Below, piece after piece: positions 3,001 through 9,000 of a stretch of DNA of 12,530 nt (position 1 is its first letter; the number at the start of each line of letters is the position of its first letter). Made by a program: the position numbers. Source of the stretch: Pseudomonadota bacterium (GTDB taxonomy: Bacteria; Bdellovibrionota; Bdellovibrionia; Bdellovibrionales; SG-bin7); the NCBI GenBank assembly GCA_034439715.1, contig JAWXAY010000055.1, positions 1 to 12,530 of the forward strand. Reading direction: 5' to 3'.

Positions 3001-6000
3001 CTGGCATTAGTTCCACTAATTTTCCGCTCTTAGCCAAAGTTCAAAAAGTTATTAGCGACGTCGGATCAAGTCAAATAGCCATTGAAGGCCACACTGACTC
3101 CGTAGGAGCCAAAAAATTGAATGAAGAACTTTCGACAAAACGTGCCGAGGCGGTTCAATCTTACTTGGTAGCAAACAATAACGTTGCTCCCAACAAGATC
3201 ACCGCTACAGGACACGGCTATTCAAAGCCAATAGCGACCAACAAAACTGCCGAGGGGCGCGCGCAAAATCGAAGAGTGGACGTGATTATTACGGCTGAGC
3301 CGGCGAAGTAGACTAATTAGGTTAAGCTAATTTAAAGAGGAGGAAAATATGATACGTGCAGCAATAGCATTTTTTGTTCTGGCCCTCGTGGCCATTGTTT
3401 TGGGCGCCAATGGAGTTGCGGGCCTTTCAATTGAAATCGGAAAGACTCTTTTAGTGGTTTTTCTGATACTGGCTATAGTTTCTTTTTTGGGATCTATGGT
3501 TACCGGAAGAAACCCCAAGGGACTGCCTTAACACTTAACACTGGAGATTTTTATGAAAAATACCAAATTACTAAACGCTTTTCTTTTTGCAGCATCACTC
3601 AGCTTTGGCGTATTTGCACTGGCCGAAGAATCCACACTTGAAAAAGTCGAGACCGGCAAAAATAAAGCCGTGAGTGGTGTAAAAAGCACTTACCGCAACG
3701 TCAAAGATAAGACTTGCGAAATGATTAATGGCAAGTTGGAATGTCTAGGAAAAAAAATAAAGGGCAAGGCCAACAATCTGTCAGATGATGTTAAAACAAA
3801 AGCTACAGAAGTTAAAAACAAAATCGACTAGACTTTTTTGATGGTTTTGAGCTAAAGGGCCCGCTTTTTATTGAGCGGGCCTTAACTAGGCATGTAGTGC
3901 TATTAAAATGATAAAGCAGCGCTGGTCTATCTGGCATGCTAATATTTCTAGACTTTTCATAAATTCAACAATAAGTATCCCCTATCATAACCATGGATAC
4001 TTTAAATTTCCCAAATAATAGGTACCCATGTATTGTGTCGGCTGAGTGGCAAAATAAACCCCACTTTAATATGAGGAGAACTTATGAAAAAGATATTAAC
4101 CACTATGAGTTTGTTTTTGGCTTCAACAGCTTTCGCATCGACCTCGGTCAACGAAAAGTTCATTGCCACTTTTTCAGACTATAACCAATTTGATCAAATG
4201 GTTAAGTGCTCACCCGGCCATCGTGGCCACTACCCGACTTTAGATATGATAGCGATTAAATCTCACGCTGTAGATATGGGGTTGAGCATTTCTGACAAAT
4301 TCAGGGCTGAATCCTCTATCGGTTTAAAAAATGATCCCAAGGAGCGTATCAATGGTCCGCGGCCATACGATGCCGGCTGCAAGCCAGCGATGGAGCAATT
4401 GAAAGCTGCAATTACGGGAAAAGAAGTTGTAGAGGTAACTGTGAATCGAACAGTGACGGTTTCTCCCAATACCGACGGCCGAGCCTACAGAAAAGTAAAC
4501 GGCGAAGTTTTAAATGTTCGATATGTTACAACTGAGCAGAGCTTCGAGTCTGTCAAGTTTGAATTGGGTGGATTTGTCTTCACAGGTGGTCAACTTCAGA
4601 ATGGAAAAAGCGAATTACTCTAAATCTGGGCATCGTTTCCTCAGCCCACCCATTGGGGTGAAGTTAGAGAAGAAGTTAGAGAAGAAATTAGAGAAGAAAG
4701 GGGAAGCGAGACACTCCCCCCCCCTAAAAAAATTACTGCAAATTACTGCAAACTAGCGACAACCCAGTGGTCGGCACACTCGAGAGTAATATTCGCACTT
4801 GTTCTGGGCTCGCGCCTGCACTTTGCGAGGCAGATAACCCGAAGACTTATAAATAAAACCTCGAGCATTTTGACTAGCGCACACTACGACTCTATGCGGA
4901 TGTACTTCACCTTCACGAATTCCATCTTCTCCGTATTGGGCAATGAAATCCGCTTCCATGGTGTTTTCAATTTGTTCAGCCGAAACACCCTCGAAGTTTT
5001 CTGCTGACCAAGCCGCCGTTGAAACTAACAAACCCATTAATATAAAAATCTTTTTCATTCTGTTCTCCTTAAAAATTGTTAAAATGTTTATCTTGAGCGC
5101 GCTCAAAAATGAAGTTGCCAGCTTCGAAAATAATTCGCAAGGCAAAAGAGCACACTATTTGAACAAAAAGGGCACAAGTATGTGCGCAATTGAGACTATG
5201 AACGATTGATTTAAAGAGCGGCTTATGACAAAACTAGAGCATGACTCCCGTTTATGAATTTGGTTCGTTCCCGAGTTATTTTGATTATGTCAGACGCTTT
5301 GCTTTGCCAAAGACTAAGCGACCTTTGACCTTGCAAAAACTTTCTCAAAAACTCGGCTATAAATCACCTCGACTCGTGGGCATGGTCCTTAAGGGACAAA
5401 GAGCACCTAGCGAAGAAATGATTGCGAAACTTATTCAGACGTTACGACTCAATCAGGGTGAGAGCCGTTATTTAAAATTGTTGGTGGAATTAGAAAGATT
5501 ACAAAAAAAAGGTTTGTCGACTGAATCCATCCTCGCAGAACTGGATGAACTCAGTCCCAAGACAAGTCACAAAAAAATGCTTGAAGTTAATACTTTTACT
5601 TACATCGCCGAATGGTTTCATCTAGTGATTAAGCAGCTTCTCAATACTTCGACATTTCGTAACGACCCAGACTGGATTAGGAAAAAATTAAGAGGTAAAG
5701 TTACTGTTCGTCAAGCGAAGCGGGCACTAGAAGTATTAGAGCAACTTGATCTTATTAAAAAAGAGGGAATGAGTACCACCGCTGAAATTCCCAGCGAAGC
5801 CATTCGGCTTCATCATGCGCAGATGATGGATCGTGCAAAAGAAGCGTTAATTGAACAATCCCTCGATAAACGCCATATGGTATCGGTCACACTTCGTGTA
5901 GATCCCCAATTTGTTGGCGAAGCCAAAGCCATGATCACGCGATTTAGAAATAATTTTGATAAAAAGTTTTCGAGTTTAACCAGTTCCCACATATTTCAAA

Positions 6001-9000
6001 TGAATCTGCAATTCTTTGAACACACAGGAGAGACATGATGATTAAGTTTTTTACCGGTTTATTTCTTTTGATTTCGACGCCAGCTTGGTCAGGTGGCGAT
6101 GTTGTTAATAACGGCGCCGGGCTTGCTGAAACTAGATTTATAATTGTCTACACTAACTTAGAAGCTCACATTGAACTTTGTGTTCTATCAAAAACTTGTC
6201 GCCTGACCGCGATTGAATCCGAATTGCTTAAGAAAATTTACCATTCTATCGAGACGGAGCGAAAGACCAAGGATCAACTGCAATTTCGCAGTCAAAAAGA
6301 TGAAGACTTTGAAATTGACGGACAAATGAAGGTGGCAAAAACCGGTTCGCACATCGGAGATATTATATATATTAATTTAAATATGATTTATGAGAAAAAT
6401 GCTGAAGGCGCTGAACAGCCGCTTAGTGATTCTGAAACGCTGGCGATTTTAGTCCATGAAATGGGACATCATCATGGAGTTAAAGACGAAATTTTGCTAG
6501 ACAGTTTGGCGGCGAAAGTTCAAGCGAGTTCACAGGGTCGATCGCAACGAGTGGAGTTAGGTTATCTTGCGGCTAACGTTGCTTTAAGTGCGTTAAATTT
6601 TGGAAACTGGGAGCGCCATTCTCAGCTTTGGGCCTCTGACGGTAAACAATTAATTGATCTTAATTCGTTTGTTAAAGCGGCCATCCAGTGCCGACCAGGC
6701 ACATCCCTTCGGGGTTCAAATATTTCTAATCTTCATTGGAAATTAGAACCTCTTCATAAAGATAGACGTGTTATGACTTTTCAATCTCGTGCTTGGTTGG
6801 TTGGCTTCTGTCGTGGCCCTCGCGGTTGGGATAGGCCATTCGTGAGAAATGTTTTTTTAACTGACCTTACATTTAAGATCACTCCAGCCGGTTTGGAGTA
6901 TATTCCGGGGTCAGCAGGCCCGGGCAAATTTTAATTCGCGACACCAACGTTGAGGATCCTTGTAATAATTTTACAAATCATCGTTATCATGGCTAAGAAT
7001 TAAGCCATGTGTTATTGGTTCTGGCTAATTTTAATTCTAAAAATTAAATCAGGAGAAACCCATGAAAAAAGTAATCATAGTGGCATTTGTGAGTCTAACG
7101 GCCATGTCAGCCTTTGCTGCTGATAGAAAAGTATTGTGTGTAGAGAGAAATATTCAAGATGCATTTTATTCTGCAGACTTTAATCTTATGACCCCAAAAG
7201 TAGATTTGTTTATCCCGTCTGGCGAGACAAGTGGAAATATAGTATCAGGTGAGTGTCGTCGTGACGAGGGTGCGATTGAATTATCACTGACTTGTAATGT
7301 GATGACTTCCTCAGATTCTGGATACGAAGTTAGACTATTCTCAACCGGTGGTCGCTCGTTACATTCAACTGTGACCCCCTGGTCGATGGCTGGAAAAGGT
7401 GAAACCATATCCCTTTCTTGTAGAAGGTAGGCTTAGGAAATTTGGCGAAGTAACTTAAGTGGTCTTACCTCGTAAAATTAAATTTACGATCAACCATTTT
7501 GAAGCCAATCATCCCAACAATCATACTTGCGAAAAAAAGAACGGGGCGACCATTAAGGCTTGCCAGAGACGTCAGTGCGGGGCCGGGACAATATCCAGAC
7601 AGCGCCCATCCCACACCGAAAATGAATGAGCCGATGACAAGCGGAACAGTGACCTTTCTCTTCGTTGGCAAGTGCCACTGGTTCGAGAAAACAGGCAGCT
7701 TTCGCTTAAGTATTATTCGATACGTCACTAAGTGGATGGCAATTGCACCGATCATAACAAAAATGAGCGAAGCATTCCAGTTTCCGAAAATATCTAAAAA
7801 GCCAAAAACCTTTTCCGGCTGAGTCATCCCGGAAATCCCAAGGCCTAAAGAGAAGAGTAAACCTACAAATAGCGCTGCAATTTTATTTTTCATTGGTAGA
7901 TATTCAAATTCCTAAAGAGAACAACAGCGAAAATTCCGGCAGCCATAAATGTAAGAGTTGCGACTAAAGAACGTGGAGACAGTCTACTGATTCCACAAAC
8001 CCCATGACCGCTTGTGCAGCCGCTTCCAAGTACGGTGCCAAACCCAACCAGTATGCCAGCTACGACAAGTGTCCAGTTAGCTGTTGGTAGAATTCCGGCA
8101 AACGCTTGTGGACTAATCACTTTTAAAATGAATCCGCCAAGAAGCATCCCGGAAATAAAACACCAACGCCAAGAAATTTCACCCTTCTCAGGTGCAATAG
8201 TTGCCCCATAAATAATCCCACTGATTCCTGTCACTCTTCCATTCAAGAAAAGCATAAGCGAGGCAGCTAGTCCAATGAGGGCACCTCCCAACAGCGGCAT
8301 TATATATTCGGTCATAGCATCACCTTTCTTTTTTTCTACTGGGATATTCCCTAACCCTATAGCATGTATTCGTGAGATACGCGTGACATTTCTAAATTTA
8401 AGGCGTGGTGGTTCATCTACTCTATCAAGTGGTGCGCGAGTCGAACAAGTAGACGAGCCGCTGACCACGGTTATATTTGAATTCGCAGCCTATCCAGAAG
8501 CCAAAGCCCCACTCAATATGATCAAACGTGATAATTGCATTGTTGACATCTTTCAAATACGGTTTGATTGCGCACCTAGTCTGCTAGCTCAGGGCCTTGG
8601 CCCGGCAATGGAATATGAATTTTAAATTTTCTTTCTGGCTTAAATATTCAATTTTAAGCTCCTGACTATCAAAGGGAATATTTCGAATTAGTTTATGAAA
8701 AGAATCGATCGTCGGATAGTCAGGCGGCAAAAACCCCCAGAGAATTCCCGATACAGAAATGTGTAGCAGCTTTTTGTCGCAAGCAGCAGCGAAAACCTGG
8801 AGGTCGAGCCTTTTCGTTTTGTCCACTTCGAATCTTTTTCCGCTCCCAATCTCAGGATTGGAATCATCCCCCTTTTTGTACTTCTCCGCAAAATCATGGG
8901 CAAACGTTTGGCCGTTGTATAGAGCGGTCAATTTGCAACTCAAAATACCGACTTCACAATCAGTGGGATTTTTGGTGCACAAACAGTCTTCCAACTGAGC

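Follow-up and report, generated by a model that had tools for sequence, protein, structure and literature searches.

The window, the whole stretch of 12,530 nucleotides that was analysed, carries on its forward strand the gene P0001 (5241..6038), which runs from ATG to TAA and encodes a protein of 265 aa; it was characterized from its ORF and translation, from Pfam and NCBIfam, and by its place in a tree. The NCBIfam model TIGR02147 ('Fsuc_second') matches residues 1-261 (9.4e-39, 133.5 bits, cut-off 50) over positions 1-269 of its 272, and Pfam DUF4423 (PF14394) matches residues 106-260 (6.4e-33, 114.3 bits, cut-off 30). P0001 is thus a member of the TIGR02147/DUF4423 family, for which a literature search under both names found the function nowhere described.

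The start codon of a second forward-strand gene, P0002 (6035..6934), overlaps the stop codon of P0001 by 4 nt (ATGA). P0002 is an exported protein of 299 aa with a signal peptide, a Gly-rich stretch, an HEMGH (HExxH) motif at residue 141 and a weak Pfam match to Zincin_1 (0.01). It is homologous to the partner of the paralog C94b (3e-4), and a search of 5.8 billion proteins turned up just one further relative. A hairpin search revealed a terminator-like hairpin on the forward strand 54 nt past the P0002 stop (6988..7009), the probable end of a two-gene transcript. On the reverse strand, a divergent gene (4753..5058) encodes a small exported protein of no family, which measures about 101 aa from the Met preceding the signal peptide and 130 aa from the first start codon. 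Further signal-peptide ORFs in the window (3553-3831, 4084-4623 and 7062-7430) are unrelated to the P0001/P0002 pair.

Two dyads lie between the divergent gene and P0001. The 5+4+5 dyad GCACA-AGTA-TGTGC (5172..5185, listed as stem 5172-5187) is positioned 56-69 nt before the P0001 start codon and is a putative operator; similar dyads precede the paralogs C39 and C94b. The second dyad, TTGAGCG-CGCTCAA (5093..5106), has 7-bp arms without a gap and is closer to the divergent gene. A search of the + strand from 5059-5240 found no sigma-70-like promoter, and an inverted-repeat search with a 6-base seed reported none in the same interval. Perfect inverted repeats (arms of at least 7 bp, at least 3 G/C, within 150 nt upstream) precede 4 of 18 family copies in this genome, a statistically weak excess over the 7.2% seen among 511 low-GC upstream regions (p 0.037, binomial); the repeat with 11-bp arms at C7, one of the four, probably terminates the gene before it, and no qualifying repeat occurs in 12 of the 18 regions. 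The paralogs C36a and C52 are 64% identical and their intergenic regions 79% identical; in the same place they carry different perfect dyads with 6-bp arms (TATTGC..GCAATA and TAGCGC..GCGCTA).

The N-terminus of P0001 (residues 8-93; 5262..5519, + strand) is supported as an Xre/HigA-type helix-turn-helix (HTH), as proposed in the initial annotation, both by sequence profiles and by the fold of a model. The family profile matches the PDB entries 9sf2 (1.3e-6, positions 22-78), 3trb (9.3e-5) and 2b5a (1.6e-4). HTH_3 matches residues 29-69 of P0001 at 1.9e-4 with 21.8 bits, slightly below the Pfam cut-off of 23, and is found at E<=1 in 13 of the 19 full-length copies (best 4.6e-8). Compared with VIA-align, residues 8-93 have a five-helix HTH fold that aligns to the HigA chain 3trb_B with Z 9.1 (rmsd 2.5, 77 aligned), to 2eby_B with Z 8.9, 3pxp_A with Z 8.8, 2ict_A with Z 8.2 and 6chv_A with Z 7.9; the HigA/YbaQ likeness spans Z 9.1-8.2. 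RodZ, cyanase, ComR and PrgX are also among the fold matches of this domain. The five-helix HTH is common to P0001, to Xre/Cro-C1 regulators and to HigA/YbaQ antitoxins, whereas P0001 has in addition a winged helix and a hood-like subdomain, and has no toxin partner.

Profile and model also support a probable winged HTH of ArsR/MarR/AsnC type at residues 113-184 (5577..5792, + strand), the first half of Pfam DUF4423. Here the family profile matches 2d1h (2.9e-4, positions 134-211), the MarR entry 3nqo (2e-3) and 6jbx (4.8e-3); with 9sf2 and 3trb, this reproduces the PDB matches noted earlier. The domain model aligns best to 2ia0_B, 3df8_A and 2p4w_B (Z 5.2 each), 6j0e_B (Z 5.0) and structures of CzrA and MarR (Z 4.9-4.7), and the matches over residues 113-185 are to AsnC, HxlR, ArsR and MarR proteins at Z 5.2-4.2, a range below Z 8 in which, according to the tool, a match may reflect merely a common arrangement. 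Across the 19 full-length copies, Pfam matches to TrmB (8/19, best 2e-4), Rrf2 (3/19) and MarR_2 (2/19) all fall below their cut-offs. P0001 residues 113-184 resemble MarR/ArsR/AsnC/TrmB regulators in modelled fold and, weakly, in sequence; unlike in those proteins the winged helix lies inside the chain next to a second HTH, and the dimer is predicted to form via the C-terminal subdomain rather than via terminal helices as in the MarR type.

While both HTH domains of the originally proposed two-HTH architecture are supported, a third, C-terminal subdomain of two helices and a strand had been overlooked (residues 184-261; 5790..6023, + strand). In the domain model (pLDDT 90.5, pTM 0.82) this region resembles the hood of HetR: its top match is 4ynl_B (Z 6.7, rmsd 1.8 A, 76/76 residues), 4hri_B aligns with Z 6.0 and an independent full-length model also matches the hood (Z 6.1), values that lie below Z 8 and fall under the same warning. 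Foldseek searches of the PDB with the full-length and domain models gave no match at E<=0.001 and did not list the HetR hood. HetR was absent among the 31 PDB sequences matched by a hood-only profile at E<=10, and no HetR family appears among 25 listed of the 57 Pfam families matched by the 19 copies.

P0001 is predicted to be a homodimer joined through exchanged C-terminal strands. The strand-swapped dimer, with its interface at domain residues 84-159, scores 0.66 (best control 0.00), a mark reached by 20/30 proteins solved as one-chain pairs and by 1/23 solved as single chains, and one that may be approximate because our own alignment was fed into the prediction. Between runs at least 99% of contacts agree, and the partner pLDDT is at least 83. 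At the level of models, P0001 has a three-part fold of HTH, winged helix and hood-like subdomain.

HetR of filamentous cyanobacteria is described in PMC4649674 as comprising a DNA-binding domain (1-98), a flap (99-216) and a hood (217-299), with a hood dimer that releases DNA once the PatS peptide is bound. P0001 is similar in length and in its order of HTH domain, middle domain and C-terminal subdomain; in the models the whole hood superposes on its C-terminal 78 residues, and both proteins have an entangled dimer via the C-terminal part, which for P0001 is a prediction. In contrast to HetR, to which the searches above found no sequence similarity, P0001 has an HTH of ordinary Xre type and a middle domain that is a probable winged helix and did not align to the flap.

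A six-frame profile search of the 3.26-Mb genome yielded 23 matches with E<=0.01, and 14 of these exceed the cut-off. They resolve into 19 full-length ORFs (248-313 aa), two short copies (184 aa for C86 and, counted from its first start codon, 163 aa for C20) and one remnant (C27, 40 aa), recovering the roughly twenty copies, short ones included, of the initial annotation. The other 18 full-length copies are 12-29% identical to P0001. We compared the family with five regulator families (LysR HTH_1, TetR_N, MarR, AraC HTH_18 and Response_reg): its ~20 copies exceed the 13 LysR HTH_1, 3 TetR_N, 2 MarR and 2 AraC HTH_18, so that the description as the largest one-component regulator family holds among the families counted; Response_reg numbers 64. 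In an even sample of the phylum, 174 of 201 genomes (87%) have a match at E<=1e-5 (172 above cut-off), in agreement with the 724 of 850 reported earlier, and 0/14 control genomes have one. The statement that the family marks the phylum is nonetheless too strong. Public data hold more than 23,000 clusters of the family at 50% identity, and the model name 'Fsuc_second' together with Atlas clusters in which Fibrobacterota are the commonest phylum indicate that it is not exclusive to Bdellovibrionota. One member in B. bacteriovorus, Bd3700, is listed in PMC12546842 among proteins whose abundance rises while the predator grows within its prey.

The gene arrangement of the copies tracks their phylogeny. 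Seven copies (C89, C33, C7, C55, C39, C94b and C86) are followed on the same strand by an ORF that overlaps or lies at most 80 nt away, with a 4-nt stop/start overlap at C55 (the P0001 locus), C7, C39 and C94b. Ten (C8, C36a, C53a, C52, C29, C36b, C100, C41, C53b and C80) are preceded by a divergent ORF at a distance of 83-148 nt, which varies with the start codon chosen. Both counts, obtained from independent ORF lists, equal those given before. A tree of the 19 full-length copies splits into groups of 8 and 11 (support 99/99), the former operon-type in 6/8 and the latter divergent-type in 9/11; P0001 is placed in the operon-type group.

The copies are linked non-randomly to genes of exported proteins. 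Among ORFs of at least 100 aa lying within 400 nt of any of 21 copies in this genome, 31 of 41 are signal-like, compared to 1375/3634 elsewhere (odds ratio 5.1, p 1e-6), by a crude test that scores 38% of all ORFs as signal-like because alternative starts are allowed. A Gly-rich motif just behind the signal peptide occurs in 13/31 signal-like neighbours and in 44/1375 (3%) of such ORFs elsewhere (p 2e-11, odds ratio 22); among the 13, the partner of P0001 was caught only by a pattern added afterwards. Calling the neighbours genes of unknown function understated what they have in common, as most look exported and many share a Gly-rich or G-N-G/P segment at this place. The same association is found in two further genomes of the phylum, where a signal-like ORF is adjacent to 12/15 DUF4423 genes in G072 (31/94 for other ORFs at the same loci) and to 16/20 in G165 (48/272). 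The C39 partner is homologous to the partners at the G072 loci L048 (1e-18) and L053 (1e-14), and the C7 partner to the C94 partner (1e-18).

We consider it likely that P0001 regulates transcription locally, as a cytoplasmic homodimer that binds DNA sequence-specifically; what we infer are its binding to DNA, its operators and targets, the direction in which it regulates and any ligand. In such a regulator the Xre-type HTH would read an operator of dyad symmetry close to the promoter of its own gene, the hood-like subdomain would join two chains by exchanged terminal strands, and the central winged helix could either add DNA contacts or relay a signal between hood and HTH in the manner of the HetR flap. 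Most likely P0001 would control its own two-gene transcript, comprising itself and the exported HExxH protein P0002, and the divergent exported-protein gene (4753-5058) may also be under its control. The ~20 paralogs would then work in parallel, every one of them a local switch coupled to an exported-protein gene of its own.

These proteins could instead be DNA-binding regulators with distant regulons, such as predation-stage genes; the neighbours would then not be their targets, and the proximity would simply reflect how common exported-protein genes are in this genome. The three unrelated signal-peptide ORFs that fill the window, the 38% of all ORFs that pass the crude signal test and the 12/18 upstream regions with no qualifying dyad are consistent with this explanation, which we nevertheless regard as unlikely: the four 4-nt start/stop overlaps, the homologous downstream partners in three genomes, the agreement of arrangement with paralog tree and the 22-fold enrichment of the Gly motif even among signal-like ORFs all argue for a local link. 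Xre folds and winged helices bind protein in some cases, and an improbable explanation is that P0001 is no transcription factor: its HTH folds would make contacts with protein, and its substrate would be the pre-protein encoded next door, which it might hold in the cytoplasm or subject to quality control for export. The conserved segment directly behind the partners' signal peptides would suit such a role, as would RodZ and cyanase among the fold matches. Against this, both sequence and fold are best matched by DNA-binding repressors and antitoxins, the predicted symmetric dimer suits dyad operators, and ten copies are divergent from their partner, for which a shared control region fits better than a stoichiometric pair.

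That P0001 is the HigA-type antitoxin of a toxin-antitoxin pair is highly improbable even though residues 8-93 match HigA antitoxins best in fold (3trb_B, 2ict_A, 6chv_A), as the gene context contradicts it: there is no adjacent small RelE/HigB-like ORF, the neighbours have no toxin family, and the partners are proteins of 150-460 aa with signal peptides. P0001 also has 170 further residues absent from HigA, and the family is present in ~20 copies and conserved across the phylum. In RRNPP regulators, an Xre HTH is combined with a peptide-binding domain and the gene for a secreted pro-peptide is adjacent. P0001 is alike in that an Xre HTH is fused to a larger C-terminal module beside the gene for a signal-peptide product; its partners differ in being full-size proteins, not short pro-peptides. 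No TPR family is listed in Pfam scans of P0001 and the 19 copies, and in the model the C-terminal part folds into a winged helix followed by the hood-like subdomain.

To our knowledge, the timing with which Bdellovibrio-like predators release their many secreted proteins is little understood. The pairing of regulator and exported protein offers a testable handle on this control in predatory bacteria of the phylum; should the copies be local switches, every cassette would supply a regulator together with its target in a form that is easy to test. A possible point of signal entry is suggested by the hood-like dimer, and a structural link to HetR would broaden a fold whose discussion has so far been confined to cyanobacterial development. 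As a long shot, TIGR02147 proteins may be HetR-like regulators outside cyanobacteria that are gated by a ligand or peptide, with the hood-like dimer sensing either a peptide derived from the partner's Gly-rich/G-N-G/P segment or the partner's precursor before export. On this view the ~20 cassettes would be closed circuits, of feedback or of signalling, in each of which export of one protein is coupled to its own transcription.

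The gene at 5241-6038 (+) is a 265-aa ORF, from ATG to TAA, whose product (P0001) matches Pfam DUF4423 at residues 106-260 (6.4e-33) and NCBIfam TIGR02147 ('Fsuc_second', model type paralog) over its full length (9.4e-39). Of the 23 matches at E<=0.01 in a six-frame search of its genome (3.26 Mb in 111 contigs, completeness 95.7%), 14 exceed the cut-off; the 23 resolve to 19 full-length ORFs, 2 short copies and 1 remnant (C20, C86 and C27, respectively; copies are named by contig). With the window's copy, the other 18 full-length ORFs share 12-29% identity. Pfam, NCBIfam and the genome search thus confirm the DUF4423 gene and the many copies reported in the initial annotation. 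The family was also said to mark the phylum. It is found at E<=1e-5 in 174 of 201 genomes of an even phylum sample (172 over the cut-off) and in 0 of 14 control genomes, but its range extends beyond the phylum: the TIGR02147 model takes its name from Fibrobacter succinogenes, and Fibrobacterota is the commonest phylum of some Atlas clusters of the family. A profile search of public data recovered 23,484 clusters (50% identity) at E<=0.001 and 10,347 at E<=1e-30. P0001 itself found 5 relatives (38-45% identity) in a homologous-protein search and, as a single-protein query for related loci, only 3 loci (25-27% identity). The portions of the literature covered by our searches held no description of the family's function: DUF4423 appeared only in a proteome table listing Bd3700, TIGR02147 was unmentioned, and nothing relevant to a Fibrobacter paralogous family was found.

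The N-terminal part of P0001 is a helix-turn-helix (HTH) domain. The HTH_3 match (1.9e-4, residues 29-69) scores 21.8 bits, below the cut-off of 23; across the copies, 13/19 match HTH_3 in single-sequence Pfam scans (best 4.6e-8). Compared with the PDB, a profile of all 19 copies matches 9sf2 (1.3e-6), 3trb (9.3e-5) and 2b5a (1.6e-4) at positions ~20-80, and 2d1h (2.9e-4), 3nqo (2e-3) and 6jbx (4.8e-3) at positions ~115-215, reproducing the matches reported before. We modeled the full-length protein from the 19 paralogs with AlphaFold (pLDDT 84.3, pTM 0.57) and residues 105-265 separately, with paralogs, close relatives and representatives combined in an alignment of 99 rows (pLDDT 90.5, pTM 0.82). 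With neither model did Foldseek find a PDB entry at E<=0.001. Exhaustive VIA-align comparison matched residues 8-93 to HigA/YbaQ/Xre domains (3trb_B, Z 9.1, rmsd 2.5, 77 aligned; 2eby_B, Z 8.9; 3pxp_A, Z 8.8). Residues 113-184 match winged helices at Z 5.2-4.2, from AsnC, HxlR, Phr, ArsR and MarR proteins; these values are below 8 and, by VIA-align's own caution, may reflect a mere common arrangement. This fold match agrees with the single-sequence Pfam scans, which found TrmB in 8/19, Rrf2 in 3/19, MarR_2 in 2/19 and IclR in 2/19 copies. Of the 'two reading heads' proposed initially, the second is probably a real winged-helix fold, of unproven role.

The protein was described as having two parts; both models contain a third (residues 184-261), which can be superposed on the HetR hood domain. 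In the VIA-align search with the domain model, 4ynl_B ranked top (Z 6.7, rmsd 1.8, all 76 chain residues aligned), followed by 4hri_B (Z 6.0), and the full-length model matched the hood at Z 6.1, all again below 8 and subject to the same caution. A second structural comparison, confined to Foldseek candidates, listed only winged-helix regulators and 4g6q; those candidates did not include HetR. For residues 105-265 a homodimer is predicted, scoring 0.66 against 0.00 for the best of three controls; the dimer mark is reached by 20/30 proteins whose solved structure is a pair of one chain and by 1/23 solved as a single chain, counts that hold roughly with an author-made alignment such as ours. At least 99% of contacts agree between prediction runs (partner pLDDT at least 83). 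The predicted interface lies almost wholly in the hood-like part (domain residues 84-159), where the last strands (147-157) pair antiparallel, which would account for their coil state in the monomer models.

In HetR, according to PMC4649674, the DNA-binding domain spans residues 1-98, the flap 99-216 and the hood 217-299, so that the order and sizes of its three parts parallel those of P0001; the same source describes PatS-derived peptides that bind clefts of the hood dimer, upon which DNA is released. P0001 differs in that its HTH is of the ordinary Xre type and its middle domain has no alignment to the HetR flap. HetR is also absent among the 31 sequences matched at E<=10 by a hood-only sequence profile against the PDB, of the 57 Pfam families that the 19 copies match, the 25 listed include no HetR family, and the literature passages searched for HetR-like proteins outside cyanobacteria held nothing relevant. 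A HetR-like, peptide-sensing P0001 is an attractive idea of low probability. Readings of P0001 as a HigA antitoxin or as an RRNPP protein were rejected on gene context and domain content. A dimeric regulator of Xre type is the reading we prefer.

The copies fall into two arrangements. Own-genome ORF lists reproduce the counts given initially: seven copies are followed within 80 nt by an ORF on the same strand, and ten lie 83-148 nt from a divergent one (the downstream side of C8 and the upstream side of C111 fall at contig ends and were left unscored). A maximum-likelihood tree splits 19 copies into two groups (99/99 support), one of 8 that holds the window's copy and is operon-type in 6/8, the other of 11 and divergent-type in 9/11. 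Unlike either type, a DUF4423 gene on C53 (7142-7954, -) is convergent with an exported Gly-motif gene (6282-7145, +), their 3′ ends overlapping by 4 nt. Four same-strand genes run together at C7:48979-52126 (L004, L024): an ECF-type sigma factor (Sigma70_r2 1e-11, r4_2 1.4e-10), a 176-aa family-less protein with a hydrophobic segment, a DUF4423 gene and, last, one for an exported HExxH protein. Sigma/anti-sigma control of this DUF4423 copy is a possibility. In G072, a complete genome from another family of the same order, two DUF4423 genes stand in tandem on one strand at L049 (2486-3319 and 3894-4616), and another two are divergent at L052 (2486-3289 and 3531-4280), sharing an intergenic region with a 7-bp-arm dyad.

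The neighbors had been called genes of unknown function, and Pfam and NCBIfam scans of 20 neighbor proteins indeed gave no family save weak metzincin-type matches, which fall around the HExxH of the C80 partner. They are nevertheless far from arbitrary. Counting ORFs no shorter than 100 aa, a crude signal-peptide test finds 31/41 signal-like within 400 nt of the 21 copies, against 1375/3634 elsewhere (odds ratio 5.1, p 1e-6). In 13/31 signal-like neighbors the signal peptide is immediately followed by a Gly-rich motif, one of them (the window's partner, P0002) found only by a later-added pattern, against 44/1375 elsewhere (odds ratio 22, p 2e-11); in the first, unadjusted scan, 12/58 motif ORFs adjoined a copy. 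The pairing extends to G072 (signal-like adjacent ORF at 12/15 DUF4423 genes, against 31/94 other locus ORFs) and to G165, from a distant family of the phylum (16/20 against 48/272). Partners are homologous between genomes (C39 with G072 L048, 1e-18, and L053, 1e-14) and within ours (C7 with C94, 1e-18; P0002 with C94, 3e-4). Many downstream partners surveyed in our genome, G072 (L048-L054) and G165 (L060-L079) have V/I/T-G-N-G-G near the mature N-terminus, and G165 partners and that of C33 have V/I/T-G-N-P 10-25 residues behind the lipobox Cys; no Pfam or NCBIfam model covers the motif.

In the window, the P0001 stop codon overlaps by 4 nt the start of the partner gene (6035-6934, +), followed by a terminator-like hairpin (6988-7009). 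The 299-aa P0002 carries, besides its signal peptide, both an HEMGH motif and a stretch rich in Gly; its HExxH is common to the C7 and C94 partners and degenerate in G165 and G072 relatives, which makes a protease role uncertain. A homologous-protein search gave 1 relative (33% identity), and an Atlas search no usable feature match, with structure rows below TM 0.5. Divergent from the P0001 gene lies a small exported protein gene at 4753-5058 (ORF 4753-5145, -). Between that ORF and the convergent ORF 4084-4623 (+) we observed a strong hairpin (4694-4725) with a nine-G run on the minus strand, then T-rich sequence; it is probably a terminator, and the homopolymer could be prone to slippage. 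The window is rich in signal-peptide ORFs (1947-3311 (+), 3553-3831, 4084-4623 and 7062-7430), among them one for an OmpA-family protein that carries DUF4398 (4e-19), and three for small family-less exported proteins. Two adjoining membrane-protein genes at 7465-8468 (-), with DUF6691 (3.7e-44) and Sulf_transp (6.7e-8), look like a split YeeE/YedE-like sulfur-compound transporter, and a LysR-family regulator (11412-12320, +; HTH_1 2.5e-11, LysR_substrate 1.6e-18) is divergent from a run of family-less minus-strand ORFs (9112-11293).

We also searched upstream of the copies for candidate operators. GC-containing dyads lie 35-100 nt upstream of several, including C94b and C39; those upstream of the window's copy are at 5172-5185 and 5093-5106. 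A 6-base seed repeat search of 5040-5260 found no inverted repeat, and a promoter scan no sigma-70-like promoter on the plus strand upstream of 5241. C36a and C52, paralogs of 64% identity, have intergenic regions that are 79% identical and carry different perfect 6-bp-arm dyads in the same place, as would be expected of co-evolving operator half-sites; an RNA stem would look alike. Perfect repeats with arms of at least 7 bp occur in 4/18 upstream regions, one of the four probably a terminator, compared with 7.2% in a background of 511 regions (p 0.037), a modest signal. Genome-wide there are 5 perfect sites for the pattern GNGNAC-N6-GTNCNC; it was derived from two of them, upstream of C39 and C94b, and so carries no statistical weight. 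G072 upstream regions hold other dyads and no common pattern.

Own-genome matches to regulator families number 3 for TetR_N, 13 for LysR HTH_1, 2 for MarR, 2 for AraC HTH_18 and 64 for Response_reg; 'largest one-component regulator family' holds among the four one-component families counted (TetR_N, LysR HTH_1, MarR and AraC HTH_18). We consider it reasonably probable that P0001 is a dimeric, Xre-type regulator, and the regulatory interpretation of the initial annotation is partly supported. To the description of the family we add a predicted hood-like dimerization subdomain and the systematic occurrence of its genes beside those for exported proteins with a Gly motif.
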